DNA of 38,026 bases from an uncultured Spartobacteria bacterium (GCA_903913785.1 CAIWMF010000021.1:1-38026); one strand, 5' to 3'. Counted from the stretch's first letter, positions 5,072 to 38,026 are shown. The notes: generated from the sequence alone by a model not told the origin. A program made the numbers and translations.

Positions 5072-5983
5072 GTGACTCTACCATCTCACTCCACAAGTAT
5101 CACTCCTGGGCAACTCATTAAAAATCGTGCTCATGATTTTATGGAGCTTGTTAAACTTCGCTTGTCGCTTCTGGTCCTTGTTACGACACTTGTCGGTTTT
5201 CTCTTAGGTTGGGTGGGACCTATGGATTATTTTTTGCTCGTGATCACTCTGATGGGCACAGCCTTCAGTGCCTTTGGAGCCTCATCGCTCAATCAATGGT
5301 GGGAACATGAATTTGATGCTCTCATGAAGCGCACACAAGATCGTCCTATTCCTGGAAGAAGATTGCATCCCAGGGATGCTTTCTGTTTTGGCGTCTTATC
5401 GATTCTACTGGGCAGTGGGCTTCTCTTCTTTTTTGTGAATACTATTTCTGCAGTATTAGGAATCATGACGGTGGTGATTTATATTCTTTGCTATACTCCG
5501 ATGAAACGCTATAGCACGTTCAATACCTTATTAGGAGCCATTCCAGGGGCGATTCCTCCACTGCTTGGCTGGAGCGCTGCAACCGGAGAGATCGGGTTAG
5601 ATGGGGTCGTTCTCTTTCTGATACTTTGGTTTTGGCAAATGCCGCACTTTTTAGCTATCGCATGGTTGTATCGTGAGGACTATGCGGCTGCAGGATTTCG
5701 GATGCTCAGTGTGGATGATCCCAGTGGTCTTGTGACATCACGTCAGGCGTTGCTCTATGCCTTGGGCTTGCTTGCAGTATCTCTAGTGCCCGGGCTTATT
5801 GGCATGGCATCCTTGCTTTATTTTATCCTGGCTTTTTTATTTGGTTTGCTCTTTGTGCTCACTGCACTTTTCTTTGTGATGAAGCGAACGAGAAAAAATG
5901 CACGTTATTTATTCTTCGCCTCCATTATCTATCTTCCCCTCATCTTGCTCATTCTCTTGTTGTGTCAGAGTGCACGCATCTAA
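5072..5983 (+). CDS. ctaB: Protoheme IX farnesyltransferase (heme O synthase)
   Basis: DALMKRTQDRPIP, YTPMKR, GAIPGAIPPLLGW, WQMPHFLAIAW and DYAAAGFRML motifs. Confidence 0.95.
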   Translation: MTLPSHSTSITPGQLIKNRAHDFMELVKLRLSLLVLVTTLVGFLLGWVGPMDYFLLVITLMGTAFSAFGASSLNQWWEHEFDALMKRTQDRPIPGRRLHPRDAFCFGVLSILLGSGLLFFFVNTISAVLGIMTVVIYILCYTPMKRYSTFNTLLGAIPGAIPPLLGWSAATGEIGLDGVVLFLILWFWQMPHFLAIAWLYREDYAAAGFRMLSVDDPSGLVTSRQALLYALGLLAVSLVPGLIGMASLLYFILAFLFGLLFVLTALFFVMKRTRKNARYLFFASIIYLPLILLILLLCQSARI

Positions 5984-6003
5984 CCCGAATATTTAACACT
6001 GAT
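5981..6003 (+). mobile_element. Solo degenerate terminal inverted repeat of the palindromic element family; its first TAA is the ctaB stop codon
   Basis: TAACCCGAATATTTAACACTGAT versus consensus TAACCCG(C/G)ATATTTCAYACTGAT. No partner TIR was found downstream. Confidence 0.7.
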
Positions 6004-6004
6004 T

Positions 6005-6118
6005 ATGTCAAAAAAAACACGCTATTTGATGGGTATGAGTATTCTTTTATTTGCTCTTGGATTAACAGCGACCGTTCTCTATCTCATGATGCTACGTGGT
6101 CCAGCGCTTGCTCAATAG
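6005..6118 (+). CDS. Putative 37-aa single-pass membrane protein (below the ORF-track cutoff)
   Basis: MSKKTRYLMGMSILLFALGLTATVLYLMMLRGPALAQ*: basic N-terminus plus one hydrophobic helix, directly after ctaB. Confidence 0.5.
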   Translation: MSKKTRYLMGMSILLFALGLTATVLYLMMLRGPALAQ

Positions 6119-6266
6119 CGCATCTCAAGAAAGTAAAATGGGGTAACGTGTACCTAAAAAGCCCCCCCATAACAAATAACCCCGAATGTACGAGACAAAC
6201 GGGGTCATTGTGATTTTTGTTATGAAGCCATAGGGGGGAGCCTAACTTCACCTTTTCTGGGGAGTC

Positions 6267-6424
6267 TTAGAAAATATTTTCAGAGTCTACTAGCAAAATA
6301 AATAGGTCATGAAGGTACTGGCTCTAGCCGAGTGCTTCAGGCGTACTCGATCGCTGTGCACCGTTGAATTCTTGTTTTCCATGATCCTTCATGAGCCTTA
6401 AGCGACTTTGAAAACAAGTTCTTA
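6267..6424. mobile_element. Degenerate palindromic element of a different family, overlapping the rplQ stop codon
   Basis: Left end TTAGAAAATATTTTCAGAGTC versus reverse complement of right end TAAGAACTTGTTTTCAAAGTC. Inner IR GGTCATGAAGG/CCTTCATGAGCC; central hairpin CGAGTGC..GTACTCG. Confidence 0.5.
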
Positions 6425-6829
6425 TTTCTCTGAGGGTATAGATTCTATTTCTATTTTTGCTTCAGCAATAGGAGCGGAATCAACCCACTCAAGGTAGGCC
6501 ATCGGAGCGCTATCACTTTGACGGGGTCCTAATTTTGTGATTCTTGTATAGCCTCCCTCGCGAGTAGCTGCTGCAGGAGCTATTTTGTCAAAAAGAATTT
6601 TGACAATATCTTTGTGCTTAAGGTAGGAAATAGCTGTTCTACGTGCGTGAAGATCGCCGCGTTTACCCAGGGTTACCATGCGCTCTGCGAGTGGCCGTGT
6701 GGCCTTTGCTTTGGCAAGTGTTGTTTTGATGCGATGATGTTCAATCAAGCTACACACTTGATTGGCTAGGAGAGAATCGCGATGGGCCGTAGAGCGGCCA
6801 AGTTTAATAGTTTTTCTGCGGTGACGCAT
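6422..6829 (-). CDS. rplQ: 50S ribosomal protein L17
   Basis: MRHRRKTIKLGRSTAHR...IKTTLAKAK...GGYTRITKLGPRQSDSAPMA; follows rpoA. Confidence 0.98.
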   Translation of the reverse strand: MRHRRKTIKLGRSTAHRDSLLANQVCSLIEHHRIKTTLAKAKATRPLAERMVTLGKRGDLHARRTAISYLKHKDIVKILFDKIAPAAATREGGYTRITKLGPRQSDSAPMAYLEWVDSAPIAEAKIEIESIPSEK

Positions 6830-6850
6830 AGGTCTAAATGTTGTTGAAGA

Positions 6851-7867
6851 TTACTCTAAAATAGTGGTCACAATCGAGGTCTGTTCGATGAGACCTGCTT
6901 CGAACTTCATGCCAAGTCCTAGACCAAGTTGTACTAATTTGTCTTTGATCTCATTGAGTGATTTTTTACCGAAGTTGCGATATTTTAACATATCTGGCTC
7001 TGATTTGGTGGCTAGCTGGCCAACGGTAGTGATGTTCGCATTGTTCAGGCAATTAGCGGCACGTACGGAGAGTTCAATTTCATTGACGCTCATGGCGAGA
7101 AGTTTCTTGAGGCGGCTGTTTTCCTGGCTGACTTCTGTTGGGGTTTCATCAAATTCCACTTGTGTGTCGTCAAAGTTGACAAAGACATCGAGATGATGGC
7201 GTAAGATGGCAGAAGACTGGAGGATCGCTTCCTCTGGGGTGAGGCGACCATCGGTCCAGACTTCCAGGATGAGCTTATCGTAGTCGGTGCGTTGTCCTAC
7301 ACGCGTATTTTCAACAGCATATTTGACCCGTGTTACTGGAGAGAAAATAGAATCAATGGCGATAACACCAACAGCCATGTCAGGATATTTATTTTCATCA
7401 CCAGTGGCAAAACCACGACCGACTTTGATTTCAAGTTCGGCTTCGAATTTCATCTTTTTGTCCAGCGTGCAGATGTGTTGATCTGGGTTGAGTACCTCGC
7501 ACTGAGCAGTGGAGGTGATGTCACCTGCGGTGACAGCTCCCTCTTTATTAACTGAAAGCGTGAGCATGCGCACTTCATGATCATGCGCTTTGAATTTCAC
7601 TTTTTTTAAGTTCAGGATAATTTCTACGACATCTTCAACAATGCCAGGCAAGCTTGTGAATTCATGAGCAGCACCTTCAATGCGGACCGAAGTGATCGCA
7701 GCCCCCTCTAAGGAAGAGAGCAAGGTGCGGCGTAATGAGTTTCCAATGGTGTGGCCATATCCTGCCTCAAAGGGTTCTGCAATGAATTTTGCATAGGTGT
7801 CGGTGGCAGAAGACTCTTCTTTTACGAGAGCTTGTGGCATTTCAAAACGACCAAGACGAATAGGCAT
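6851..7867 (-). CDS. rpoA: DNA-directed RNA polymerase subunit alpha
   Basis: EPFEAGYGHTIGNSLRRTLLSSL, RVGQRTDYDKL, ELSVRAANCL, NFGKKSLNEI. Likely start is MPIRLGRFEMP at 7867. Confidence 0.98.
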   Translation of the reverse strand: MPIRLGRFEMPQALVKEESSATDTYAKFIAEPFEAGYGHTIGNSLRRTLLSSLEGAAITSVRIEGAAHEFTSLPGIVEDVVEIILNLKKVKFKAHDHEVRMLTLSVNKEGAVTAGDITSTAQCEVLNPDQHICTLDKKMKFEAELEIKVGRGFATGDENKYPDMAVGVIAIDSIFSPVTRVKYAVENTRVGQRTDYDKLILEVWTDGRLTPEEAILQSSAILRHHLDVFVNFDDTQVEFDETPTEVSQENSRLKKLLAMSVNEIELSVRAANCLNNANITTVGQLATKSEPDMLKYRNFGKKSLNEIKDKLVQLGLGLGMKFEAGLIEQTSIVTTILE

Positions 7868-7884
7868 AGGATAGTGATAGTTGT

Positions 7885-7950
7885 TTGCCGGGTTTCCCTT
7901 AGCGCATTGCGTAATGACGGTTAAGATCATGACTTAAGGACCAACGGCAA
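7885..7950 (-). promoter_or_regulatory. Putative structured 5' leader of rpoA-rplQ
   Basis: On the minus strand, a closing stem TTGCCG...CGGCAA, a GGTCCTTA/TAAGGGA..CC stem and two inner hairpins, ending 17 nt before the ATG. Confidence 0.4.
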
Positions 7951-7983
7951 CTTTTTCTTAATATAAGTTTGCGCAAGCGCGTT

Positions 7984-8011
7984 AGACTACATGGTTTTTT
8001 GGGAGGTGCAA
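7984..8011 (-). promoter_or_regulatory. Putative sigma70 promoter for rpoA
   Basis: TTGCAC-16 nt-TAGTCT on the minus strand with an AT-rich upstream tract. Confidence 0.35.
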
Positions 8012-8090
8012 GAAATTTTTTAGAGGTATTGGGTCCTTTGTAGGAATCATGAATTCTTCCAACAAAGGTATAAGAATAGGTCGATCGAGA

Positions 8091-9041
8091 TTATGGGGCT
8101 TTTTCGTTAGGTGTATTATAGGCCTGCGCTCTTTGCTCGATCAGCGCTGCTATTTCTTGATTGGTCGATAGGTTTGTAGCCTCAATTAAAGGGCTTTTAT
8201 CATCCGGTCTTGCCGCCTCTGCTTCACCTACCGCCTCTGCTTCAACAACGCTGAGGCCATGGGGATTTTTATCGGATTTTGCTTGTTGTGCACTGATCTT
8301 TGAATCAGCTGGAGTCCCATAGGCTACGGGAATTGCATGAGGTATCGCAATGGGACCTCTAGCATCAGGTGGGGGATGAATACCAGCTAAAGCGGCTTCT
8401 GCAGCAGAAACGGGATATGCTCCCTTAGGAGTTGCTAAGGACTGGAGGCGCTGGGCATCGCTAAAAGCACGAGAAGCAGTTGTGAGTGTATTATAGTCGT
8501 TGGAGGCTTGATGGAGTGCAGTTCCAAAATCATCCCATGTGTTGAAGCGGCTGTTCACGTCACTGTTTAAAATATTCCAGGCATGACTGAAGGATTGCAC
8601 CGCTTTGATGAAAGCTGTTTTGTATGGCTCATATTCTGGAAGTGTGCGATTGATATGAGGGCTATCAAGTGCACGTGCACTCTCCATGAGTGAGTTATTC
8701 AAGGTGGAGAGTGCATTACGTTGTTCTGCGAGATCATCGGGAAGTAATACCGAAGTGCTATGAATAGATGCACTGGAAAGAGATCCTATCGCTGCATCGA
8801 ATGTGCGCACCGGATTGGCTATTAATTCCATGAAGTAATCTAGGTTCGATGTCCTTTCCTGATGAGGAATAGGAGGGGGAAGATAACTAGCAAGAGATTC
8901 ATGGGGGCTAACAGGTTGAATGGGTACTCCTGCCAAGTTTCCTTGCACCGGTTCTTGCGTATTCGTCGGTTCACTCAGAGTAGGTGTTAGATCGAAGAAT
9001 ATTGGATGGCTATCTCTGAGAGAAAGAGTAGGTGTGGTCAT
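8091..9041 (-). CDS. Hypothetical protein (Pro/Ser/Thr-rich N-terminus, helical core, Ala/Pro-rich tail)
   Basis: The ORF track gives 8091..9071; the ATG at 9041 (MTTPTLSL) avoids overlap with the gpmA ORF. No recognised domain. Confidence 0.7.
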   Translation of the reverse strand: MTTPTLSLRDSHPIFFDLTPTLSEPTNTQEPVQGNLAGVPIQPVSPHESLASYLPPPIPHQERTSNLDYFMELIANPVRTFDAAIGSLSSASIHSTSVLLPDDLAEQRNALSTLNNSLMESARALDSPHINRTLPEYEPYKTAFIKAVQSFSHAWNILNSDVNSRFNTWDDFGTALHQASNDYNTLTTASRAFSDAQRLQSLATPKGAYPVSAAEAALAGIHPPPDARGPIAIPHAIPVAYGTPADSKISAQQAKSDKNPHGLSVVEAEAVGEAEAARPDDKSPLIEATNLSTNQEIAALIEQRAQAYNTPNEKAP

Positions 9042-9109
9042 GATTTTAAAAAATGATTTTCCGCAAATCATTCATTGAATTTTTTAACAAGACAACTATT
9101 TCTTATGGA

Positions 9110-9856
9110 ATGCAAAAAATTGTTTTCATTCGTCACGGGGAGAGTCTTTGGAATGTGGAGAATCGTTTTACGGGTTGGACTGATGTCGATCTCTCGGAAA
9201 AAGGTGTTGCCGAGGCTAAGGCGGCAGGGGCGCTTCTACGCAGGGAAGGATTTACTTTTGATCTGGCTTTTGTTTCGGTGCTCAAACGAGCACTTAAGAC
9301 AACGTGGATGATTTTAGAGGAGCTTGATGAGCTCTGGATTCCCATTGAACGTTCTTGGAGATTAAATGAGCGTCATTATGGTGCTCTCCAAGGACTCAAT
9401 AAAGCTGAGACCGCCCAACAATACGGTGATGCGCAAGTGCTAATATGGCGTCGGAGTTACGATGTCGCTCCATTGCCACTAGAGGCAAGTGATCAGCGCT
9501 CCCCACTGGATGACCCTCGTTATGCGATGCTTTCCAAAAAAGAACTCCCTTTAACCGAGTCCTTAAAGGATACGGTCGATCGTGTTGTTCCTTATTGGGA
9601 AGAGGCGATTGTGCCCGCCTTGCGTGAGGGTAAAAAAATTATTGTGGTCGCTCATGGTAATACGATTCGTGCGTTGATCAAACATCTCGATCACCTCTCT
9701 GCCGAGGAAATCATCCCGATTAATATCCCAACGGCTGTCCCGCTTGTCTACGAGCTTGATTCTGCACTCCTCCCTCTGCGTCACTATTATTTAGGTGATC
9801 AAGAAAAAATCTCAGCAGCCATGGATGCTGTCGCTGCGCAAGGCTTGCAACGATAA
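9110..9856 (+). CDS. gpmA: 2,3-bisphosphoglycerate-dependent phosphoglycerate mutase
   Basis: [49 protein letters not shown]. Confidence 0.97.
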
Positions 9857-9920
9857 AGTGGCTGTTGGCGTGAAGACAGAGCTTTTGCTCTCAAGGAGTT
9901 TTTTTCTTTCAAAAACTTAT

Positions 9921-10763: not shown

Positions 10764-10776
10764 GAACGAGATGGCA

Positions 10777-11718
10777 TTAAGAGGCGCTCAGGCGTTCTAC
10801 GCCAGCTTGAAGAGATTCGAGATCACTAATGCTAATGACTTCAACGTCTTTACGAATACGATTGACGAGTCCAGCAATGACTTTTCCAGGTCCACATTCG
10901 ATAAAACGGGTGCAGTGACATTCATCAAGAAGGTATTCAATAGATTCTCTCCAACGCACCGATCCTGTGACCTGATCGGCGAGTGTTGTACGAATTAGAT
11001 CTGGTGAGATTGCAGGCTTGGCTTGAACATTTGAAATAACGGGAATGCGTGGTGTTGCTATCGCTGTTGTTGCTAAAACAATTTCTAATTTCTCGCGTGC
11101 AGGGTTCATGAGGCGTGAATGAAAAGCTCCTGAAACAGTCAGTTCAATGGCTTTGCGAATGCCATGTTCTTTGGCAAGTATGGTGGCATTAAGGATATTT
11201 TTCTTGGCACCAGAAATGACGATTTGACCAGGAGCATTCAAGTTTGCAACGTCGACATCGGCAACATGAGCCAGTCGACGCACGACTTCTTCTTCTGCAC
11301 CAATGATGGCAGCCATGCTTCCTTCTGTTTCTTCGCAGGCTTCTTGCATGAATTGAGCGCGCTGTTCGACGAGTTTTAAACCAGTTGCAAAATCAAATGT
11401 TCCTGCTGCTGTGTGAGCGGTGAATTCTCCAAGAGACAGGCCGGCAGCCGCATGAAATTCTAATTGCGGTAAGGCTTCCTGTAAGAGCGCCAAGGTAATG
11501 AGCCCATGTACGTAGAGGGCAGGTTGAGCGATAACGGTCTGGGTGAGTTGCTCAACAGGGCCTTCAAACATGATCTGTGAGAGGGAGGTTTGCAGGATGT
11601 GATCAGCTTGTTTAAAAAGAGCCGCGGCTCTTAGCGAGTGATGAGCAAAGTCCTGGCCCATGCCAACAACTTGTGATCCTTGACCTGAGAAGAGCAGTGC
11701 GGTGCGATGATGTGACAT
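10777..11718 (-). CDS. fabD: Malonyl CoA-ACP transacylase
   Basis: FSGQGSQ, AQPAL, GLSLGE catalytic Ser, VSGAFHS, VRW and ECGPGKV. Confidence 0.96.
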   Translation of the reverse strand: MSHHRTALLFSGQGSQVVGMGQDFAHHSLRAAALFKQADHILQTSLSQIMFEGPVEQLTQTVIAQPALYVHGLITLALLQEALPQLEFHAAAGLSLGEFTAHTAAGTFDFATGLKLVEQRAQFMQEACEETEGSMAAIIGAEEEVVRRLAHVADVDVANLNAPGQIVISGAKKNILNATILAKEHGIRKAIELTVSGAFHSRLMNPAREKLEIVLATTAIATPRIPVISNVQAKPAISPDLIRTTLADQVTGSVRWRESIEYLLDECHCTRFIECGPGKVIAGLVNRIRKDVEVISISDLESLQAGVERLSAS

Positions 11719-11863
11719 GAGCTAAAAAATGGAAGGTGAATGTGAAAGGAATTTGATATGCAAAAAAGTAGTCACAACACAAGGAGCAGGCAAGCAAGGA
11801 GAAAAGAAAAAACTGAGTCTATTGTGTCGCTTGTTCTCACTTCCACGTAGACTGATTTTCCTT

Positions 11864-11929
11864 GAGCCCGGATATTTCATACTGGTGCGTCGTGAGGCGC
11901 AGCAGATTCAGTATGAAATATGCGGGTTA
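11864..11929. mobile_element. Short (66-bp) internally deleted palindromic element; supplies the stop codon of the upstream methyltransferase
   Basis: GAGCCCGGATATTTCATACTG...CAGTATGAAATATGCGGGTTA. On the minus strand it encodes ...LNPHISY*. Confidence 0.9.
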
Positions 11930-13026
11930 AGTTGCCTAATGCCTGGGCGCTCATAGCGAAAGCAACCGAGTGGAGGTCTGTTCTCAATGGCTTTTCCTAG
12001 TCCTAGAAAATGGAATTGCCGTCCCATGGTTTCTGGATGAAGAAGGGTTTTTAACTGGCGCAAATAAGCTTGTGTAGAGGCATTCTGAAGATGGCCATCG
12101 AGTCTGTGCAGCCATTGTTCTAGGGCGCCTATCATAAAATGATGTTGGTCACTAAAGCCAAGGAGCTCGAAGTCTTGCTCGCGTGCGGTGTTGGCTAGTG
12201 CGGTAAAATCGACATGAGCCGAGATGTCACGGCTGCCTGGTTTTTCTAGAGGGTCGTTGTAGCGTCGATGATTGTGGTAGCAGGCAATACTTCCCTCAGC
12301 TCGGTAGGGAGCAAAACGATGCTCGCCAAAGTAACCATAATCCGCAATAAGGATCATCCCGCGTTCCATACGCTGGGCAATTGCATCGAGCCAGGGAGCA
12401 ATGTTGAGGCGTGCTTCCCATAGAAATCCTGGACTCAGATCGGTGGGCAAGGTGGCTGCTACTGCGTGAAGTTTTTTTTTCTTGATAGGGGTGTTAACCC
12501 AGGAAAAGCATTGCTTCTCTTGCCTTACGCGTTTTTCTAGCCACTCTTTTCCGCTCCAGGTGAGGATATGTACGGGAAAGGCATCAAGCAGTTCATTGGA
12601 AAAATGGACGCCAATGAAGCGAGGGAGTTGCGCAAGTTCTCGTGCCCAGGAAATATTCTTAAATGCTTTGAGTCGCTCTTTTTGGCGCTGCTCATGGAAT
12701 AAAAAAGGTTCTACAATCACGTATTGTGTGCAGGCAAAGAGTTCTTCGTATTCTTCTGCTTGTAAGGCTTCTAAAATATCGAGCGCAAGTCTTCCATCGT
12801 GTGCTCCTTGCTCAATGATGGAAAAGGGTTTGGGCTTGCCGAGCTTTTCCCAAAGGTCTTGGAAGAGAAGTGCTAGGGTTTTTCCATAAATAGGACCAAC
12901 ACTCACATTGGTATAAAAATCACCTTCTTTGCCAATGCGAACACGACCCGACGCGTAGTAGCCATGCTTGGGATCGTAGAGAGCCCGCTGCATGAAGGTT
13001 GCAAAGCAGAGAGAGGGATCAGGCAT
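11908..13026 (-). CDS. SAM-dependent methyltransferase, MidA/NDUFAF7 family
   Basis: FMQRALYDPKHGYY, GDFYT, EQGAHDG, SNELLDAFPV, DYG and DISAHVDF. Confidence 0.92.
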   Translation of the reverse strand: MPDPSLCFATFMQRALYDPKHGYYASGRVRIGKEGDFYTNVSVGPIYGKTLALLFQDLWEKLGKPKPFSIIEQGAHDGRLALDILEALQAEEYEELFACTQYVIVEPFLFHEQRQKERLKAFKNISWARELAQLPRFIGVHFSNELLDAFPVHILTWSGKEWLEKRVRQEKQCFSWVNTPIKKKKLHAVAATLPTDLSPGFLWEARLNIAPWLDAIAQRMERGMILIADYGYFGEHRFAPYRAEGSIACYHNHRRYNDPLEKPGSRDISAHVDFTALANTAREQDFELLGFSDQHHFMIGALEQWLHRLDGHLQNASTQAYLRQLKTLLHPETMGRQFHFLGLGKAIENRPPLGCFRYERPGIRQLNPHISY

Positions 13027-14863
13027 TAAGATGACTCCCTTTTTTTTCTTTCCAATAAAACATCATCGCAATGCCAATACAGATTGCTAGTGATCCGATC
13101 CATTTGAGTAACCATCCTGGATCATAGAGGACCTGGAGGGTTGTTTCCTCAAGGTTCTGTGGGTTCCACTCTGCTTGTGAAAATTTATAATTGATCCCTG
13201 TTACGTTCGCTATGAATCCTCCAGGAAAACTTGCTGGATGATTCATTCTAATAGCGTCATGACGTGTTGTGTCAGTTTTGCCGCGTGTGCGATCATGAAA
13301 ACATACGGTTGCTCGAAAATCTCCTGGAGTCTCGGTTCCTTCGTCACGAGGAATTTGAAAATCAACGAGCTCTATGGAAAAGGGAATGGGACGTAGTTCT
13401 AATCCATAACCGATGCGAATAGGAATGTCCTTTAGGATAAGCGGGGTGATTTGTCCTGAGGAGACCCATGTTGCCTCACTCTTGAGGCCATCAGGATCTT
13501 CAAGAAAAGCATGAAAGCCAGGAGTGCCGGTGAGGTTGTTTTTTTTGGAAGAAGGTGGTGTTGGTCGGGTGCGCGAAACGATATGTTCATGATGACCGCT
13601 TTGTAGAAGTTCCATTTGCCAGTCTGCCCAGCCAAGGGGCACGACTTCGCCTATTAGTAAGGATCCACTTTGTTTCGTCTTATTGTGACGACCTAATAAA
13701 AACTCAACACGATCGCTGTTCGGTTCGAGAGCCAGTGCTAACCATGGTTTGTGGGTGGCGTAGGGAATTAACCCGGATATTTCACGCCGATCACCTGCGG
13801 AGACCGGGAAGCCTGATGGATCTTGCGTTAGACTCACATTGTGACTTGGGCGGTATGTACTCATACAGCCCGGCGTCAACATGCTCGTCTGCCTGCCCCC
13901 ATCCGCCTTCGCGGCCTCCTCGTCACGATCGGTATGAAATATGCGGGTTAAAGGAATCTTTTTGGTGCCTGTAGGAGACAATGCTGATAGCTTGGATTCT
14001 TCTTCAGGAGCGGTAGGAGGAGGAGTGAGCGGAGCGGGAGAAGTCGCTTCCTTGGCTGGAGGTTGGAGTGGTTTGTCTGAACGCATCAAGGTGATTGTTG
14101 CAAGACCAAAAAAATCAAAAACGTCTTCGTTTTTCTCCTCTAAGCTCAAAGCTACCAGATGCTCTTGATGGAGTGCTTGACTGCTTAAGCGTAGGAGCAC
14201 TGCCTCACTCTCATCCTTATTTGCTTGTCTCACCAGTGTAGGCACGTCCTCGAGGAATTCGCTCCAATCATCAATGACGAGATGGAGTTTTGTTTCTGGA
14301 ATCCTAAGGCGTGTGGGATGGTTTTTCGAAGGCCGAGCAAGCGTTGCATCAAAGGGAAGGAGATAGAGATGGTAATTAAGCGGGGTTTCCATTTCTAAAA
14401 CACTCTGATTGGTGGTGATGTTTTTCACTGCTGCTCCATGGACTTGTAGCGTCACATTTCCCTCAAATCCTAGCTTGGATCCAATGGCTGCGCCCATGAG
14501 TAAGGTGATAATTCCATAATGAGTGATGACAAAACCAAGATGCTTTCTTTCCCAGGGCCACCTGGTCAAGGTTACCGCAAAGAGATTGAGGCAAAGAAGT
14601 CCCAACCATGCTAGGAACCATGGTGCTTTGTAGATCATGGCATGCGCTACTTTGGTATCAAAATGTGATTCAGTAAACGTCGCCACGCCACAAGCAATGG
14701 CAATAGTGGCAAGGAGGATGAGCGCAAGTTGTAATGAGCCTAGCAGGTGAATGAGCTGCCAGAGGGTCGAATTTTTCTGACGCTCTTTGATCATCATGCG
14801 TCGGGCTTGGGCCTTGTTTTTTAGGGGGTAGATGTTTTCCTGTTGCGGGCTCTCTAGATGCAT
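13019..14863 (-). CDS. ResB/Ccs1-like cytochrome c biogenesis protein carrying a 60-aa in-frame element insertion
   Basis: LGSLQLA..LL, IYKAPWF, GFVITHYG, IRMNHP and C-terminal YDPGWLLKWIGS. The start is uncertain (ORF open from 14914). Confidence 0.85.
   Translation of the reverse strand: MHLESPQQENIYPLKNKAQARRMMIKERQKNSTLWQLIHLLGSLQLALILLATIAIACGVATFTESHFDTKVAHAMIYKAPWFLAWLGLLCLNLFAVTLTRWPWERKHLGFVITHYGIITLLMGAAIGSKLGFEGNVTLQVHGAAVKNITTNQSVLEMETPLNYHLYLLPFDATLARPSKNHPTRLRIPETKLHLVIDDWSEFLEDVPTLVRQANKDESEAVLLRLSSQALHQEHLVALSLEEKNEDVFDFFGLATITLMRSDKPLQPPAKEATSPAPLTPPPTAPEEESKLSALSPTGTKKIPLTRIFHTDRDEEAAKADGGRQTSMLTPGCMSTYRPSHNVSLTQDPSGFPVSAGDRREISGLIPYATHKPWLALALEPNSDRVEFLLGRHNKTKQSGSLLIGEVVPLGWADWQMELLQSGHHEHIVSRTRPTPPSSKKNNLTGTPGFHAFLEDPDGLKSEATWVSSGQITPLILKDIPIRIGYGLELRPIPFSIELVDFQIPRDEGTETPGDFRATVCFHDRTRGKTDTTRHDAIRMNHPASFPGGFIANVTGINYKFSQAEWNPQNLEETTLQVLYDPGWLLKWIGSLAICIGIAMMFYWKEKKGSHLNA
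13769..13950. mobile_element. Full-length palindromic element (182 bp, net 180) in frame within the ResB-like gene
   Basis: TAACCCGGATATTTCACGCCGAT...ATCGGTATGAAATATGCGGGTTA; encodes LTRIFHTDRDEEAAK...DRREISGL. Confidence 0.95.
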
Positions 14864-14942
14864 GGGATAGAGAATATAGCCTGTAGAAATGAAAATCGCT
14901 ATTCTCAACTGCAAAATTTATACTCGTTCATTTTTAACAAGC

Positions 14943-16502
14943 ATGCAATCATCGCGCACCATGGTCACCCCTTCGTTCCTCGTTCTACGAGTTCTTGTGG
15001 TTCTTTTTTTTATCATCTTCTCTCCTGCTTCTGGCGTTGAGGTTGTTGATGCGACTGGCAAAAATCTCTTTTCACCCACTTCGACAAAAGATCAGAATCA
15101 TGCCTCGAGTGTGGGAACGTTAAATTGCTCATTTCTCCCCAATAAAAAGTACCATCTAGGCAGTCTCATTGACTTAGCGCTCAATAATAATCCGATGACC
15201 CGTGGGGCATGGAGTGCGGCCAAGGCGGCATCTGCATCGGTTGGAGAGGCGCGTTCACTTTATTATCCATGGGTTAGTTCTGATTTTAGAGGGGGGTATG
15301 ATAAAACATTTACCCCTATTGCCTCGGGTCCGAATGCTGCGAGTCGTAATCAAGCGACCGTTTTTTTAAGTCTCGAATATATTCTCTTGGATTTTGGGAG
15401 GAGGGATGCTGATGTCCAGCGTACTATTGCCACCTTTCATGGGCTGGGACTCACCTATCAACGCAAATTACAAGAAGTTATTTTTACCGTCGAGAAAACC
15501 TACTTTGCCTATGAGGCAGCACTCTGGAAGCAAAAGGCCGCTGAGGCTAATCTCCTTTTTACCCAAACACTCAATGACATGGTTGTTCGTGAGCGTGTGA
15601 CTGGTCTTGCCGCAGACCCCGATGAATTAATAACCCGCAAACGCGTTCTTGAAGCCCAGTACGAGGTTGAAGCTGCCGTTGCTGTTGTGCGTAATACCTT
15701 GGGAGAAATCTGTATTGCTGTTGGGATTCCTGCTAATAGTCCACTGCAGTTTGTCGAAACACAAAAACCTCCCTCCACCAAAAAGCTCCTAGGTGATGTC
15801 ACTCTTCTCATTGAAAAAGCAATTGCCTTACGTCCTGATCTTGCAGCACGTGTTGCCGAGCTGCAGGCTAGCAAAGAGGCTACAAAAAGAGCGATGTCTG
15901 ATTTTTTCCCCACCATCAAGTTGGAAGGGCAATATGCAAATACCACCTTTGGATATCAGGGAAATCAGCGAAATCCTAGTGTGAGCGGTTATTATAATGG
16001 TTTTGGTGCCCCTTATGGGAGTGCATTTGTGACCGCGCACTGGGATCTCTTTGATGGATTTGATCGGGTCTTTCGTCTCAAGCGTCGTCAAGAAGAAGAT
16101 AAAGTCGCAGAAGAAAATGTAAGACAAACTCAACTCAACACCACACGTGATGTCTGGACCGCCTACAACAACATCCTGGCTGCTGCAAACCGGGTCGAGT
16201 ACGCAGAAGGGTTTGTTGCCTCCTCGAGAGAATATTTTAGCTCCATTAGTGCTGCTCAAGAAAGCGGACTGGCCAATGTGACCGATTACTCGCAAGCGGG
16301 AAGTAATTTGAGTTTAGCTCAGTTTGAACTTGCAAGCGCTGTTTCGGATTACTCAATAGCTTTAGCAGCTCTTGCCCTCGCTGTAGGATCGACCACTCCT
16401 TCCTCTCGCGTCGTGCATGAGGATTTAGGAGCTCCCGGAAAAATATCTAGTCACTTGCTTTCCAAAGAGGCAGCAGGCTTTCAGCCAGATATTTCTTACT
16501 AG
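14943..16502 (+). CDS. TolC-family outer membrane efflux protein
   Basis: Signal-peptide-like N-terminus; LIDLALNNNP, YILLDFG, RPDLAA, FFPTIKL and WDLFDGF repeats. The start is uncertain (14889, 14943 or 14961). Confidence 0.9.
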   Translation: MQSSRTMVTPSFLVLRVLVVLFFIIFSPASGVEVVDATGKNLFSPTSTKDQNHASSVGTLNCSFLPNKKYHLGSLIDLALNNNPMTRGAWSAAKAASASVGEARSLYYPWVSSDFRGGYDKTFTPIASGPNAASRNQATVFLSLEYILLDFGRRDADVQRTIATFHGLGLTYQRKLQEVIFTVEKTYFAYEAALWKQKAAEANLLFTQTLNDMVVRERVTGLAADPDELITRKRVLEAQYEVEAAVAVVRNTLGEICIAVGIPANSPLQFVETQKPPSTKKLLGDVTLLIEKAIALRPDLAARVAELQASKEATKRAMSDFFPTIKLEGQYANTTFGYQGNQRNPSVSGYYNGFGAPYGSAFVTAHWDLFDGFDRVFRLKRRQEEDKVAEENVRQTQLNTTRDVWTAYNNILAAANRVEYAEGFVASSREYFSSISAAQESGLANVTDYSQAGSNLSLAQFELASAVSDYSIALAALALAVGSTTPSSRVVHEDLGAPGKISSHLLSKEAAGFQPDISY

Positions 16503-16568
16503 CGGGAAGATTCTATACTCAAGGATCATGAGGCGTATATGTAAGGCTAAATTTTTTTATTTTATCCC

Positions 16569-16597
16569 TTGCCTTTATCGCATCTCTTTGATACTTT
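16569..16597 (+). promoter_or_regulatory. Putative sigma70 promoter of rpmI
   Basis: TTGCCT-17 nt-TACTTT with a TGn extension, 9 nt before the ATG. Confidence 0.4.
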
Positions 16598-16606
16598 CCT
16601 GAACCC

Positions 16607-16816
16607 ATGCCTAAACCCATTGCACGAAGTAAAACTAAAAAGTCTGTTGCTAAGCGATTTAAAATCACGGCAACTGGCAAAGTCAAACGCTCTAAAGCTG
16701 GCCGTCGTCATTTATTGGAGTGTAAGAGTTCTAAGTTGAAACGTAATATGGGCAAGTCTGCAATTGTCGAGGACTGTGATGTGAGTCGTATTAAGCTGAA
16801 TCTCCCATGGGGATAG
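16607..16816 (+). CDS. rpmI: 50S ribosomal protein L35
   Basis: KTKKSVAKRFKITATGKVKRSKAGRRHLL. Confidence 0.97.
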   Translation: MPKPIARSKTKKSVAKRFKITATGKVKRSKAGRRHLLECKSSKLKRNMGKSAIVEDCDVSRIKLNLPWG

Positions 16817-17146
16817 CTCCCGTCTCCCCTCCGGTCCTTCTGGATATCAAGACTTATTGCTGAGAGTTGCAGGGCATCATTGTTGTTAGCTTTCACATTT
16901 CTCAAAAGAAAAACATCCGAATATTTTTCACTGTTTCAACAAAGAAACTATGAAATTTATTCCTAGGACTACGCATCCATGAGATAGCAGTTTGCTAGGA
17001 ACAAAATAATAAAAAGTAGAGAATGATTCATGGATCTGGATATTTATTGTGAATATCCTAACCGGGCAGGTGAGTTCCATGAAGCAATATTAACAAACAG
17101 CCAGCCCGACGAGGCTCCTTGTCTCATCACAAGGAGAAAATAAACA

Positions 17147-17530
17147 ATGCCTAGAGCCACTAATTCACCAGCTAGTCGCGCACGTCGTAAGCGAGTTATC
17201 GACGAAGCCGCTGGTTATCGCGGTCGTCGTTCCAAACTTTTCCGTTATGCCAAGGATGCGCGGATGAAGGCCAAGTATTGGGCCTACCGTGACCGTAAAA
17301 CACGCAAGCGTAATGTTCGTGCCCTTTGGATCACGCGTCTCAACGCTGCCGTGCGTGCTCAATCCCTCAACTACAATCGTTTTATTGAAGGGTTAAAAGC
17401 CGCTAATATCTTACTTGATAGAAAAGTTCTCTCCGATATTGCACTCACTGATGAGAAGACTTTTCTTGAGATTGTTGGCAAGGTAAAAGCTGCACTAGCT
17501 GCCAAAAACAGTCTGGTAACTCCCTGCTAA
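17147..17530 (+). CDS. rplT: 50S ribosomal protein L20
   Basis: MPRATN...GYRGRRSK...AYRDRKTRKR..RALWITRLNAA...LDRKVLSDIA. Confidence 0.98.
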   Translation: MPRATNSPASRARRKRVIDEAAGYRGRRSKLFRYAKDARMKAKYWAYRDRKTRKRNVRALWITRLNAAVRAQSLNYNRFIEGLKAANILLDRKVLSDIALTDEKTFLEIVGKVKAALAAKNSLVTPC

Positions 17531-17733
17531 TAATTGATCGAGAGCTTGTGGTGAAGTCTTTTTCTTCGCTTGTCAACGTGAGAGAAAATGATCTTTCACA
17601 ATTGGATCACCTTTTTGGATGCTTCTAGTGGAGGGATTCGCGATCTCTGCCTGAGCACCGTCGTGTTTTTTTCTCTTGGCTTTATACTTCAAACTACCGA
17701 TCCTCAGGCCCTTCTTGTTTCCTTCTTCTAAGT

Positions 17734-33940: not shown

Positions 33941-34912
33941 ATGATGAGGCCCTCTTTTTTTTCTATAGGAACTCGAGGAAGTGCCCTCGCACTTGCTCAA
34001 ACAAGATCTGTGGTCCATTTGCTTGAGAGCAAGTATCGTGATCTTAAGATAGAGCAAAAAATTATTTCAACACGTGGGGATGCCCATCCTAAGATAGCTA
34101 TCCATCTACCAACAAGCGAGGCAAGTGGTCTTTTTACCCGTCAGCTCGAGGATGCATTGCTTGCTGGCGAAATCGATATGGCTATTCATAGTCTTAAAGA
34201 TCTTCCCATAAGAATCCCTGAGGGACTCATGCTTGCTGCAATCTTACCTCGTGCTAGTTCAACTGATCTGCTCATTAGCCTCGAGCCTCACAAAATTTCT
34301 ACCTTACCCAGGCAAGCAACTATTGGAACAAGTAGCCCGCGTCGCACAGAAATTCTACGCCATATAAGACCTGATTTCATCTTTCAGGCAATACGAGGCA
34401 ATGTGCCAACACGCTTACGCAAACTTGTTTTTAAGGAGTCTCCAGATCAACTCGATGCTCTTATTCTTGCACAGGCTGGGCTGGAGCGCCTCGGCTATGA
34501 TTTTAGAATCGATGATGGGCGAGGGTTCTTTGACTTTGAGGGGAGGAGACTCTATCTAAGAGAACTTGCCGCCATGCTTCCTGCACCAGGACAAGGTGCC
34601 ATTGCTATTGAGACACGTTGTGAGAACACTCCTGCCTCTGCTGCCCTCTGTGTTCAGGTGCTTCATGATGAGAATACAGCCCTTTGTGTAAGTACAGAGC
34701 GACTCTTGCTCTCGTACTTGGGAGGCGGGTGTCACATGGCCTTAGGTGCGTTGGCAAGGGTTGATAACGTAGTAAAAAAAATTCATCTTCAAGGTGTCTA
34801 TTTTCCTTATGAAGGAGCTATCCCTCGTTTGGGAGAAGCCAGTGGTCATACTCCAGAGGAGGTAGCCCTGCGTGTGGCCACTATGCTCGGAGAAAAATTA
34901 GCCATCTCATAG
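33941..34912 (+). CDS. hemC: Hydroxymethylbilane synthase (porphobilinogen deaminase)
   Basis: IGTRGSALALAQ, HSLKDLP, GTSSPRR, IRGNVPTRL, PAPGQGA and LGGGC. Confidence 0.96.
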   Translation: MMRPSFFSIGTRGSALALAQTRSVVHLLESKYRDLKIEQKIISTRGDAHPKIAIHLPTSEASGLFTRQLEDALLAGEIDMAIHSLKDLPIRIPEGLMLAAILPRASSTDLLISLEPHKISTLPRQATIGTSSPRRTEILRHIRPDFIFQAIRGNVPTRLRKLVFKESPDQLDALILAQAGLERLGYDFRIDDGRGFFDFEGRRLYLRELAAMLPAPGQGAIAIETRCENTPASAALCVQVLHDENTALCVSTERLLLSYLGGGCHMALGALARVDNVVKKIHLQGVYFPYEGAIPRLGEASGHTPEEVALRVATMLGEKLAIS

Positions 34913-34938
34913 TTTTTTCATTTTTATACCCTAACTTT

Positions 34939-36513
34939 ATGAAACAAAATCCCTCTTCTAAAAAAAAACACGGCATCTGTTATCTTGTGGGCGCAGGTCC
35001 TGGTGATCCAGGGCTCTTCACGATTCGAGGTAGAGAATGCCTCTCACGTGCAGAGGTAGTCCTCTATGATTATTTGAGTAATCAAGAATTACTCCGTTAT
35101 GCTCCAGTTGATGCTGAAAAAATTTTCGTTGGCAAGAGTGCTAGAAAACATGCGCTCTCTCAGGAGGAAATCAATGCGTTGTTAGTCAAAAAAACGCAAG
35201 CAGGTCATTGTGTTGTTCGACTTAAGGGAGGCGATCCTTTTCTCTTTGGCCGAGGTGGGGAGGAGGCTCAAGCATTAGCCGAGGCAGATCTTTCATTTGA
35301 AATTATTCCTGGTGTGACCTCTGCTATCGGGGGACTCGCCTATGCTGGTATTCCTGTGACGCATCGTAGTAATAATTCACAACTGACTATTTTTACTGGT
35401 CATGAAGATCCCTCTAAGGAGGTTTCCTCGCTTCATTATAAGTCTCTTGCCATGGCTCCAGGAACAAAAGTGATGCTCATGGGTGTGGAGCGATTAGATG
35501 CTATTACTACCTCCTTAATGGAGGCAGGGATGGAAGCAGCCACCCCGGCGGCTCTTGTACGGTGGGCTACAACAGGGAGGCATGAAACCATTACCGGAAC
35601 AGCTGCAACCATTGCTCGTCTTGCTCAAGAAAAAAATTTTTCAGCTCCTGCTATTGCTGTTTTTGGAGAGGTGGTTTTGCTTCGAAAAAAATTAAATTGG
35701 TTTGAAACGCGTCCTCTTTTTGGACGTCGTATTGTTGTTACTCGAACGCGTGAACAAGCTAGTGAGCTTGTGACAGGCTTGCGTGAGCTTGGCGCTGATG
35801 TGTACGAATTACCAACCATTCGCATCGAAGCCATCGAAAACAAAGAAGAAAAAGCAGCCTTCCTTGAGGTCGTCAACTATGCCCATGCGTACGATTGGAT
35901 TGTCTTCACAAGCCCGAATGGCGTGAGCGCTTTTTTTGAAGAATTTTATCACCATCATCACGATGCTCGCGCCTTAGGAGCCGCACGCATTGCTGCTATT
36001 GGCCCAGGAACAGAGAAAAAAATTCGTGAATATCGTTTTTCTGTAGATCTAGTGCCTCCAACATTTGTCGCAGAATCGTTGCTTGAAGAGCTCAAGAAGG
36101 TAGGTGTAGAAAACCTTCGTATTCTTTTGCCTCGAGCTAGTGGAGCTCGAGAATTTTTAGCCACAGCCCTTGAAGACCTGGGGGCAATTGTTGATGATGT
36201 GCCGGTTTACCATACTCGTCGAGAACTCGATGATAAAGAAGGAGGGATTCAACGTTTTTTGCAAGAGGGAGCTGATATGATTACCTTTGCAAGCGGATCG
36301 AGTGTGGAATATTTTGACGCATTGTTAAAAAATCTGGGAAGAAGATTGCCCGATTATTGTCACACCGCAAGTATTGGTCCCATTACCTCAAGCAAAATGA
36401 GGGAACTGGGCGTTCCTATTAGTATTGAGGCAAAAAAACACCATATTCCAGGGCTTGTGGAGGCAGTAGTTAGATTTTTTGATAAGGATCAGCCATCAAG
36501 TTTTCTCGCATGA
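34939..36513 (+). CDS. cobA: Fused uroporphyrinogen-III C-methyltransferase / uroporphyrinogen-III synthase
   Basis: LVGAGPGDPGL, RLKGGDPFLFGRGGEE and GIPVTHR, followed by the HemD domain (VVTRTREQA, FTSPNGV, FASGSSV, SIGPITS). Confidence 0.95.
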   Translation: MKQNPSSKKKHGICYLVGAGPGDPGLFTIRGRECLSRAEVVLYDYLSNQELLRYAPVDAEKIFVGKSARKHALSQEEINALLVKKTQAGHCVVRLKGGDPFLFGRGGEEAQALAEADLSFEIIPGVTSAIGGLAYAGIPVTHRSNNSQLTIFTGHEDPSKEVSSLHYKSLAMAPGTKVMLMGVERLDAITTSLMEAGMEAATPAALVRWATTGRHETITGTAATIARLAQEKNFSAPAIAVFGEVVLLRKKLNWFETRPLFGRRIVVTRTREQASELVTGLRELGADVYELPTIRIEAIENKEEKAAFLEVVNYAHAYDWIVFTSPNGVSAFFEEFYHHHHDARALGAARIAAIGPGTEKKIREYRFSVDLVPPTFVAESLLEELKKVGVENLRILLPRASGAREFLATALEDLGAIVDDVPVYHTRRELDDKEGGIQRFLQEGADMITFASGSSVEYFDALLKNLGRRLPDYCHTASIGPITSSKMRELGVPISIEAKKHHIPGLVEAVVRFFDKDQPSSFLA

Positions 36514-37751
36514 AGTTCTTAATGCGGATTCCGTATTGGAGATATTTTTTCTTACGAGGGTTTTGTTTGTTTCTCGTAACGACTGTATCATTATTCGGGT
36601 CTTCGAGTCACCCTTGGCATCTCGTGCAACGCAAAGCACTAGCCCGGATATTTCATGCCGATCTACTGCGGAGGTCGGGAAGCCAGATGGATGCTTCGCT
36701 CAACTCACATTGTGACTTCGGCAGTATGGACACATATAGCCCGGCGTCAAAATGTGAGTCTGTGTTGACTTGCTTGGCGAAGCTCGTCTCGCCCTTACGG
36801 GCTGCCCCTAACCTAAAACGGTTACGGCAGTCTACCCCAGGCTCTCCCGAGCACTGGTGTTGCCCGAGGAGCCATTCGAAGCTAACGCAGTATCCATCAG
36901 GTGTTCGCAAGCCGCAGCAGAATCGGTATGAAATATGCGGGCTAGAGCCTATAAGCTCTGGAAAATCTCCCCCGCGGTCTCTTGGACCGCCGGTGGTGCC
37001 CCGTCAAGCTTCACGCCCTCCTTGTCAGAATCAGGATGAAATATCCGAGTTACGTACAATAGAGCCCTCGGGTATTTTAGTATCATTTTCTTTTGAGACT
37101 CCCACGAGTGAACAGGCCGAGGTCCAAGCTTTGATTTTTGAGGAAAAAGATTTTTCGCTCCTTGTTGTCGATCAGCCATTGCAGGATCAATCTCTTTTAG
37201 AAATGATGCAGAAGACCTCCTGTGTTGCTGGAATCAATGGAGGCTATTTTCAGCCTGATGGGACACCGCTTGGACTGCTAGTACACTATGGGAAGATGAT
37301 TCATCCCCAACAACGAGGAAGTATCTTGAGTGGATTTTTTGTGAGTTCTCCCGAGAAAATGACTATTCTGCGCCTTGGTGAAGAGATTCCTGCAAGTGCC
37401 AGAGAGGTCCTTCAAGCAGGACCCTTCTTGCTTGACCATGCACGTCCTGTGATAGGACTCGAATCGACTAAAAAAGCCTGCCGCAGCTTTCTTGCAACGA
37501 GTGATCAAGGAATGTGGGTGATGGGTATTATTTCCCCTGTGACCCTTGATCAGGCTTCTCATATTCTTGATGCACTTTCAGGTGTGCTCTCCGAGGAAAA
37601 AAAGGAAAAAAAACTAACACGTGCCTTAAACCTCGATGGGGGCTCTTCTTCTTCATTCTGGGCTAAGACAACACTTGTCCCCTTTTCGTTTCGCAGCGAT
37701 GTCTGCGTCAGGAATTATTTAGGGGTCAAAGAAAAAAAATCATCACAATGA
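36510..37751 (+). CDS. Phosphodiester glycosidase (NAGPA) family protein with large element-derived insertion
   Basis: GINGGYF, PLGLLV..G, LQAGPFL and ALNLDGGSSS; N-terminal signal or TM segment. Confidence 0.85.
   Translation: MKFLMRIPYWRYFFLRGFCLFLVTTVSLFGSSSHPWHLVQRKALARIFHADLLRRSGSQMDASLNSHCDFGSMDTYSPASKCESVLTCLAKLVSPLRAAPNLKRLRQSTPGSPEHWCCPRSHSKLTQYPSGVRKPQQNRYEICGLEPISSGKSPPRSLGPPVVPRQASRPPCQNQDEISELRTIEPSGILVSFSFETPTSEQAEVQALIFEEKDFSLLVVDQPLQDQSLLEMMQKTSCVAGINGGYFQPDGTPLGLLVHYGKMIHPQQRGSILSGFFVSSPEKMTILRLGEEIPASAREVLQAGPFLLDHARPVIGLESTKKACRSFLATSDQGMWVMGIISPVTLDQASHILDALSGVLSEEKKEKKLTRALNLDGGSSSSFWAKTTLVPFSFRSDVCVRNYLGVKEKKSSQ
36640..36944. mobile_element. Chimeric palindromic element (305 bp, net 303) in frame within the NAGPA-family gene
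   Basis: TAGCCCGGATATTTCATGCCGAT...ATCGGTATGAAATATGCGGGCTA; encodes LARIFHADLLRR...NRYEICGL. Confidence 0.95.
36993..37052. mobile_element. Right-hand remnant of an older element, also translated in frame (...RPPCQNQDEISEL)
   Basis: GCCCCGTCAAGCTTCACGCCCTCCTTGTCAGAATCAGGATGAAATATCCGAGTTA aligns to the right arm of the 13769 copy. The left boundary is unclear. Confidence 0.75.
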
Positions 37752-37856: not shown

Positions 37857-37867
37857 CCCCCAGTCCT

Positions 37868-38026
37868 ATGCAACCCGAAGAACCGCAAGTCAAAAAGCTC
37901 ATTCAGTTTGACTGGGCGATCAAGACACTCCTGCGTCGCAAGGCAAACTTTCCGATACTAGAAGGCTTCCTCTCCGAGCTACTGCATACCGATGTGGTCA
38001 TTGAATCTTTGCTGGAGAGCGAATCC
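37868..38026 (+). CDS. Rpn family recombination-promoting nuclease/putative transposase (PD-(D/E)XK), 5' part, truncated by window edge
   Basis: MQPEEPQVKKLIQFDWAIKTLLRRKANFPILEGFLSELLHTDVVIESLLESES. Confidence 0.88.
   Translation, partial: MQPEEPQVKKLIQFDWAIKTLLRRKANFPILEGFLSELLHTDVVIESLLESES

Follow-up and report, generated by a model that had tools for sequence, protein, structure and literature searches.

Rickettsia palindromic elements (RPEs; Ogata et al. 2000 and 2002), as outlined in excerpts of a review (PMC10969869), are palindromic repeats of ~150-180 bp that lie in frame in unrelated housekeeping genes of a small genome, and also between genes, and that add a conserved peptide to the host protein while its open reading frame (ORF) is kept. 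We know of no parent transposase for them. In excerpts of a 2024 review of MITEs (transposable elements of the miniature inverted-repeat type), RPEs are treated as the extreme case of a phenomenon that is not unusual, the in-frame fusion of MITEs, with an unusually high frequency and an unexplored effect on the protein, and ERIC, BOX, and Anabaena MITEs appear as non-autonomous repeats that are sometimes fused to host ORFs (PMC10969869). Here, we describe a family of palindromic elements that resembles RPEs in a 38,026-nucleotide stretch of DNA from an uncultured Spartobacteria bacterium (GCA_903913785.1 CAIWMF010000021.1:1-38026; hereafter the window), which is contig C21 of a draft genome of 1.63 Mb in 220 contigs, with 43.6% G+C and 93% completeness. 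The likeness is one of behavior only. We report the anatomy of the family, its parent insertion sequence (IS), the phase rule by which it occurs in genes, the clean gaps at its positions in orthologues, and a presence/absence polymorphism between strains. We concluded that the elements are very probably internally deleted hairpin MITEs of an IS of the IS1380 family, presumably mobilized in trans, which survive in genes by the phase rule. They are a new RPE-like family of coding MITEs with an identified IS1380 parent, and the in-frame behavior itself is already known from RPEs.

Elements of the IS1380 family are ~1.5-2 kb long and have a single ORF, inverted ends starting with CC, and a target duplication of 4-5 bp. 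Members of the family are described, in the part of one article that was available, as mobilizing adjacent resistance genes via one-ended transposition (PMC9330008), and a tabulated entry lists IS1247 with 1672 bp, inverted repeats of 16/13, and a direct repeat of 5 bp (PMC3281130, Table 2). No IS1380-derived MITE was found among the listed titles and abstracts combining the two terms, and IS1380 is absent from the excerpts of the 2024 MITE review (PMC10969869). Similarly, the literature on IS1380 with CTAG, piggyBac, or target site duplication yielded no statement on the target sequence. The present element was not found in the literature on palindromic or MITE repeats of Verrucomicrobia, a search that lay outside supplements and ISfinder, so a catalogued match may exist.

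The elements were recognized by the 23-nt end motif TARCCCGSATATTTCAYRCYGAT, for which up to three mismatches were allowed in the window and in the genome. In the window, the motif had 17 matches, compared with none in 100 dinucleotide-preserving shuffles, and we observed seven two-ended copies of 66, 182, 182, 278, 182, 186, and 305 bp, measured from TA to TA, plus one degenerate copy (table 1). An earlier note, made from the window alone, had claimed such a repeated family of terminal inverted repeats with two-ended copies, and this was borne out; the solo ends that it listed at 5981, ~22146, and ~37052 were recovered as well, but it had missed the one at 27910-27932. Four copies are genic, in agreement with that note, with net lengths of 180, 180, 180, and 303 bp and no stops in the host frame, and their hosts are a ResB-like protein, PheT, an ORF of 1704 aa without a Pfam match, and a NAGPA-family protein. 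The intergenic copies are unconstrained, as had also been noted: the copy at 27702 has a net length of 184 bp, and the copy at 22171 has a stop in the equivalent frame.

Genome-wide, we found 563 ends, which formed 198 two-ended copies when ends on opposite strands were paired within 700 bp. Copy lengths ranged from 57 to 435 bp, with a mode at 182 bp (56 copies) followed by 183 (21), 186 (13), and 184 bp (10) and a second cluster at 263-283 bp. The 56 copies of 182 bp showed a median nearest-neighbor identity of 95.7%. Element-like DNA formed 345 blocks with a total of 61,328 bp (3.75% of the genome), and the G+C content of the elements was 51.9%, compared with 43.6% for the genome. The elements are imperfect palindromes over their full length, and two copies folded as RNA each gave one long hairpin (-75.6 and -92.1 kcal/mol, with z scores of -7.3 and -8.6 relative to shuffles). 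Inverted ends on both strands, small size, the lack of a transposase gene, and many copies are all features of MITEs. Among the 167 unpaired ends, 43 lay within 300 bp of a contig end, and 38 of the 440 contig ends lay in or at most 50 bp from an element block; the element contributes to the fragmentation of this metagenome-assembled genome (MAG).

A search for widely spaced pairs of these ends identified a 1584-bp element at C121:275-1858 that is bounded by the MITE ends. Its ends begin with CCCG, and it carries one ORF of 451 aa; on the transposase strand, no other ORF reaches 80 aa. The ORF scored 393.2 bits against the NCBIfam model NF033539, "IS1380 family transposase" (cut-off 180), and 542.7 bits against Pfam PF13701 (cut-off 34.7); in the Pfam scan (E<=0.01), PF13701 and PF01609 were the only matches, with no piggyBac domain. 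In its size, single transposase ORF, and CC-initial ends, the element resembles ISEcp1, IS1247, and ISPme1, and its duplication, if short, would be comparable to that of IS1247. An intact parent IS with the same ends as the MITEs sits in the same genome, and its family is IS1380. Because the transposase-proximal IS end was also found, with different flanks, where contigs C147 and C199 end, the genome contains at least three IS copies. The copies on these two contigs are nested, one at a TTAA inside the interior of a MITE and the other sharing a TTAG with a MITE end. We also compared 80 metagenomic loci with transposases 45-72% identical to that of C121. The core CCCGNATATTTCA (up to three mismatches) occurred as an inverted pair 1400-1900 bp apart in 57 of these IS1380-type loci, and 43 of the 57 had YTAR (Y, pyrimidine; R, purine) on both sides, CTAG/CTAG being the most frequent combination (17). 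These ends are a trait of the family and are not confined to this genome. The terminal inverted repeat, which had been unfamiliar in the earlier note, was, by the criterion of that note, not novel, since it matches the end of an IS1380 element and its core bounds related elements.

Across 561 ends of the MITEs, a pyrimidine stood before the terminal TA in 549 and a purine after it in 558. Flanking tetranucleotides were identical direct repeats in 110 of 196 copies, compared with 52.5 expected if the two sides were independent; TTAA/TTAA was the commonest flank (59 of 196), and CTAG, CTAA, and TTAG were also used. In particular, the outer flank base covaried with the inner base of the opposite end, which gives the pattern of a 4-bp direct repeat. 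Non-palindromic pairs were direct in 19 cases (CTAA/CTAA, 13; TTAG/TTAG, 6) and inverted in two (TTAG/CTAA), with CTAA/TTAG absent among the 25 commonest pairs. This preponderance of direct pairs indicates a duplication of 4-bp YTAR around a core beginning with CCCG, and not of TA only, as had been supposed; the data favor MITE flanks that behave as a 4-bp YTAR target duplication. The earlier attribution of the family to TA-duplicating MITEs moved in trans by an IS630/Tc1-mariner transposase has points to recommend it, since TA stands on both sides of the ends and a TA-only duplication predicts the same 180-bp difference at empty sites. CTAG and NTAN targets are, moreover, typical of IS630, and YTAR contains both. 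A search of the genome with PF13358 (DDE_3), however, gave a best match of only 16.5 bits, with two stops, below the cut-off of 28.6, whereas the only IS with matching ends carries an IS1380 transposase and related IS1380 elements have the same ends. Together with the 19 direct versus two listed inverted flank pairs and the 4-bp covariation, this led us to reject an IS630/mariner parent, which we consider extremely unlikely.

The sequence of the ends also determines how the elements can be read. When the end TTAACCCGCATATTTCATACTGAT is translated in three frames, one frame begins with a stop, TAA or TAG, and a second meets a TGA near the inner edge. In the sole open frame, YTA is a leucine codon and the end reads L[TA]RIFHTD, with the opposite end reading ...YEI[SC]GL. 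For the open frames of the two ends to join, the net length must be divisible by 3, and the modal copies have a net length of exactly 180 bp. In the end frame, each interior of the 182-bp copies (n=56, ends excluded) had on average 0.13-0.32 stops, whichever the orientation, compared with 1.2-3.1 in the other frames and 1.6 in shuffled interiors, and openness in both orientations was seen for 21 of the 31 non-genic and 17 of the 25 genic copies. Because non-genic copies are as open as genic ones, the openness belongs to the source copies of the family and not just to the survivors in genes.

We then asked how copies are distributed relative to genes. A copy was called genic if an open frame ran across the element and extended 50 codons or more beyond it on each side; this held for 33 of the 198 two-ended copies, and the net length was divisible by 3 in 33 of 33. 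When each of the remaining 165 copies was excised in silico and the same criterion was applied, an ORF was restored in only four, the net lengths of which were 1, 2, 1, and 1 modulo 3. In comparison, 60.6% of 3000 random YTAR sites in the genome fell in such ORFs, so that copies in genes, at 37 of 198, were approximately three-fold depleted (binomial test against 0.606, p=2e-33). The frame was kept in 33 of the 37, and a compatible length was found in 64 of the 161 non-genic copies (Fisher test, 33/4 vs. 64/97, p=2.8e-8). This genome-wide census agrees with the earlier claim, made from the window, of a mobile palindromic family that lengthens the products of intact genes in frame by 60-101 aa. 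A different relation was observed at gene ends, where the flanking TAA or TAG terminated an ORF of 100 codons or more at 61 of 563 ends, compared with 1.8% of random YTAR sites, and 17 further ORFs entered an end in its second frame and stopped at the TGA inside it. Stop codons are safe landing places because TAA and TAG belong to YTAR sites.

The 33 genic copies occupy 32 ORFs, of which 21 have Pfam domains. Outside the window, the hosts include Dxr (DXP reductoisomerase), RnpA (RNase P protein), a class A penicillin-binding protein, GcvP (glycine dehydrogenase), GlnD, MalQ (4-alpha-glucanotransferase), a GTPase, a low-molecular-weight phosphatase, and permeases. The earlier note had proposed that orthologues would show clean gaps at the inserts, and this was observed for PheT, the ResB-like protein, NAGPA, and Dxr. 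For PheT, 17 of 17 orthologues (11 from the same genus and 6 from the same order) aligned on both sides but were without the 60 residues after ...AAFGAGE, and this genome contained a single full-length match to pheT. The ResB-like proteins of the three nearest relatives (G005, G003, and G010) were without the insert, and the duplicated leucine corresponds to the L of their LIPxATHKPW. At this position, distant orthologues have an unrelated native segment of ~70 aa that is missing from the subclade of this genome; thus, the insert occupies an already variable region. All 12 genus orthologues of the NAGPA protein lacked the 101-aa insert, which directly follows an N-terminal hydrophobic (signal-like) segment, and its adjoining remnant. 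In Dxr, the main match started at residue 114-130 in 12 of 12 genus relatives, and the N-terminal match ended at residue 56-59 in the nine relatives where it was listed, with 3-9 nt between the matches in the three closest. For the 1704-aa ORF, no orthologue was found at E<=1e-40 in 20 relatives, and there was no usable Atlas match. The insert peptide itself was found in 28 proteins of a public collection; among these, NAD(+) synthase, 5-formyltetrahydrofolate cyclo-ligase, lipoate-protein ligase A, and phosphopantetheinyl transferase are names given to records from MAGs of Chthoniobacterales or Verrucomicrobia.

Strain variation provided natural alleles of two of these hosts. The sequencing runs listed for the region included DNA runs but no RNA run. 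Contigs from four DNA runs were aligned to positions 11000-30000 of the window, and two of the runs, X2 and X3, came from two other studies. In X2 and X3, a contig that is ~3% divergent aligned to 17588-19792, and its next base continued at 19973-22064, which is an empty PheT site exactly 180 bp shorter. The contigs of a further run, X7, stopped 33 nt inside each end of the PheT element, as expected if the element is present there. The empty allele may simply be ancestral. Within the 1704-aa ORF, X2 and X3 skipped 25217-25384 (168 nt) with three other letters between, a net difference of -165 bp. This deletion keeps the first 44 nt of the copy at 25173 and removes the remainder together with 30 nt of host sequence, with the frame kept; the X2/X3 form is an in-frame deletion derivative of the inserted copy. 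In X7, the same ORF had indels of 21, 6, and 2+3+1 nt and three single insertions, and its frame was again preserved. These frame-preserving indels between strains support the 1704-aa ORF as a real gene, which is apparently fast-evolving and lineage-specific.

The alleles and orthologues also bear on whether the inserted segment is mobile DNA at all. It could be a native, lineage-specific protein module spread by recombination, and its conserved peptide ends and its recurrence in the 28 database proteins are what such a module would show. However, 161 of the 198 copies lie outside long ORFs, copies occur in both orientations, their inverted ends are identical to those of an IS, and they are flanked by duplications, whereas orthologues are without the segments and an empty allele exists. 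Given the intergenic copies, the parent IS, and the empty allele, a native protein repeat was rejected, and we give it next to no credence.

To see how a host protein might accommodate the insert, PheT was modeled with AlphaFold2 from an alignment of 18 sequences. The model had a mean predicted local distance difference test score (pLDDT) of 80 with confidently predicted domains, and residues 195-266, between a helix at 176-185 and a strand at 279-286, had a pLDDT below 50 and no secondary structure. The model fits an insert that would be extruded as a loop between well-folded domains. Such predicted disorder, the location of some inserts in catalytic domains, and the very stable RNA hairpins of the elements could also be taken to mean that the hosts have become pseudogenes as the genome decays, or that the insert is lost at some stage following transcription, so that the proteins would be without the extra 60 residues. 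Against this stands the frame, which is kept open in 33 of 37 genic copies, whereas non-genic copies have compatible lengths much less often. In addition, essential housekeeping genes are among the hosts, pheT has just a single full-length match in the genome, and the strain indels in the 1704-aa ORF sum to multiples of 3. We know of no splicing machinery in bacteria for such hairpins. We consider decayed hosts or removal of the insert very unlikely.

The distribution of the family was examined in 13 genomes of the genus including this one, all of them draft MAGs. Ends counted on both strands with at most one mismatch numbered 463 in this genome, 473 in G005 (73% complete), 422 in G010, and 107 in G003; G002, G004, and G012 had 29, 25, and 11, three others had 2, 1, and 1, and three others had none. 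In G002, 26 of 29 end matches, among the matches listed, had the variant core CCCGCAAATTTCA, which differs by one mismatch and suggests that a subfamily of its own, the ends of which co-vary, is present there. When one genome was scanned for each species, the core was found in several Chthoniobacterales/Verrucomicrobia MAGs from lakes, and the single matches in unrelated phyla were, by our estimate, approximately at chance level (roughly 17 expected). In these draft MAGs of the genus, PF13701 had a strong match only in this genome's copy, in addition to a distant 121-bit copy in G008 and fragments. The insert sites in PheT, the ResB-like protein, and Dxr were not common to the element-rich relatives, which indicates that the insertions postdate speciation. 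In G003, pheT carries its own in-frame insert of 68 aa (L077:1090-1290) at a different site, derived from a different TTAA-flanked repeat with its own inverted ends; the DNA of this repeat had 45 matches in G003, with no end-motif match in this genome. Thus, the genus has at least two families of coding repeats.

We also considered whether some copies have been co-opted, with intergenic hairpins acting as terminators or RNA-stability elements or the peptides acting as functional loops. The strong hairpins, the 61 ends that abut stop codons, and the nearly stop-free interiors even of non-genic copies would suit such roles. However, the stops in non-genic copies are, by our estimate, about what neutral divergence of ~4% from an open ancestor would create, and different species do not have insert positions in common. 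Co-option is therefore unlikely in our judgment, and the peptides are probably tolerated rather than functional.

We proposed that the history of the MITEs in this genome is very probably as follows. The IS1380 transposase encoded on C121 would presumably mobilize the MITEs in trans. Integration takes place at YTAR, and the element is then flanked by this tetranucleotide on either side. A copy inserted at a leucine codon in phase adds ~60 residues (L[TA]RIFHTD...YEI[SC]GL) and leaves the gene unbroken, and a copy in another phase, or one of 183, 184, or 186 bp, truncates the gene and is purged by selection unless it lies at the very 3' end. The outcome is the present gene-dense genome of 1.6 Mb with ~200 copies, 33 of which would be translated as loop insertions in intact, mostly housekeeping genes. 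With respect to the independent coding-MITE system that the earlier note had put forward, what the elements do was upheld, and the mover was replaced, being presumably IS1380 and not IS630.

Several observations weigh against this proposal. The divisibility by 3 follows partly by construction from ends with one open frame, and the informative figure is the four disrupted ORFs. Of the 90 two-ended copies in 74 loci sampled from related genomes, 5, among the matches listed, were genic, which is a lower share than here, and all five had compatible lengths. A protein search in the draft MAGs of G005, G002, and G003 did not find an intact transposase, and G010 had only a remnant. The flanks of the C121 IS differ, with CTAA on one side and CTAG on the other, and non-palindromic flanks of the metagenomic ISs were direct in four cases and inverted in four; for full-length ISs, TA duplication with an extended target preference may be an alternative. 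Some inserts split catalytic domains, namely the N-terminal Rossmann domain of Dxr and a GH77 domain; thus, the full activity of such hosts is not guaranteed. The low pLDDT of the PheT insert may reflect only a thin alignment at that place, and it is from the maintained frames that the inserts are presumed to be translated.

The ends of piggyBac elements start with CCC. In accessible parts of two articles, IS1380 transposases are placed as the prokaryotic outgroup in piggyBac trees (PMC10813416), and piggyBac is described as integrating at TTAA and excising seamlessly (PMC7351741). The present elements are similar in having a TTAA-type tetranucleotide on both sides and CCC-initial ends, and seamless excision would also leave an intact codon here; they differ in the target, which is YTAR (TTAA, CTAG, CTAA, and TTAG), and in the transposase, which has no piggyBac domain. 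The YTAR flanks and CCC-initial ends fit a kinship of IS1380 with piggyBac. A bolder possibility, which we put forward tentatively and regard as doubtful, is that a piggyBac-like clade of IS1380 integrates at YTAR and excises seamlessly, and that lineage selection on its MITEs for translation in both orientations has let them enter and leave the coding sequences of streamlined genomes, in which hardly any intergenic DNA remains, reversibly. If true, such MITEs would be a natural source of loop insertions in essential proteins, and the origin of RPE-like elements could be modeled on them in bacteria.

Whatever the relation to piggyBac, the IS1380-derived MITEs extend an RPE-like phenomenon, so far treated as a speciality of Rickettsia, at a comparable scale to a free-living, small-genome lake bacterium and its relatives. 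The host of RPEs is an obligate intracellular alphaproteobacterium, whereas the present host is represented by a lake Chthoniobacterales MAG; the elements differ from RPEs in their sequence and ends, the presence of a parent IS, the YTAR flank, and a phase rule in which YTA encodes leucine. Compared with ERIC, BOX, and Anabaena MITEs, they are distinguished by their high frequency (33 in-frame genic copies in 1.63 Mb) and by main subfamilies that are open in both orientations. The intact candidate transposase, the simple sequence rule, and the natural alleles with and without an insert make this a tractable system. There are also consequences for annotation, as public records name such proteins as ordinary enzymes with the foreign segment of 60 residues unmarked, and for assembly, as the elements fragment MAGs.

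The individual copies and solo ends of the window are listed in table 1. In addition to the genes named there, the Methyltransf_28 gene at 11908-13026 (-) enters the right end of the 66-bp mini-element in the second frame and stops at the internal TGA (tail ...NPHISY*).

Table 1.— Positions of element copies and solo ends in the window
Feature	Position	Strand	Context
Solo end	5981..6003	+	Flanking CTAA gives the TAA stop of the UbiA-family gene 5072-5983 (ORF of 307 codons)
66-bp mini-element, two ends back to back	11864..11929		Identified by motif pairing
182-bp copy (net 180), in frame	13769..13950		ResB-like gene 13019-14914 (-), residues 322-382
182-bp copy (net 180), in frame	19793..19974		pheT 19222-21786 (+), residues 191-251
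Truncated solo end	22146..22161	+	Just upstream of the copy at 22171
278-bp intergenic copy, long subfamily	22171..22448		Net 276 bp; either orientation has stops in the end frame
182-bp copy (net 180), in frame	25173..25354		1704-aa ORF 22472-27586 (+), residues 901-961
Degenerate copy	~27564..27700		TGA in its mutated left end terminates the 1704-aa ORF
186-bp intergenic copy	27702..27887		Net 184, not divisible by 3; both orientations closed
Solo end, 3 mismatches	27910..27932	-	Between the copy at 27702 and the GH1 gene end
305-bp copy (net 303), in frame	36640..36944		NAGPA-family gene 36510-37751 (+), residues 44-145
Solo right end of a second, partial copy	37030..37052	-	In-frame part of the NAGPA gene (...QNQDEISEL)

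The two ends of the contig carry another repeat. Positions 1-106 and 37863-37968 of the window are inverted copies of it that are 97% complementary, and it was also observed on C206 and C54 (97-100%) and, as weaker copies, on C187, C57, and C36. This repeat has the look of a fragment of a multi-copy gene at which the assembly breaks, and it seems to have no relation to the MITE.

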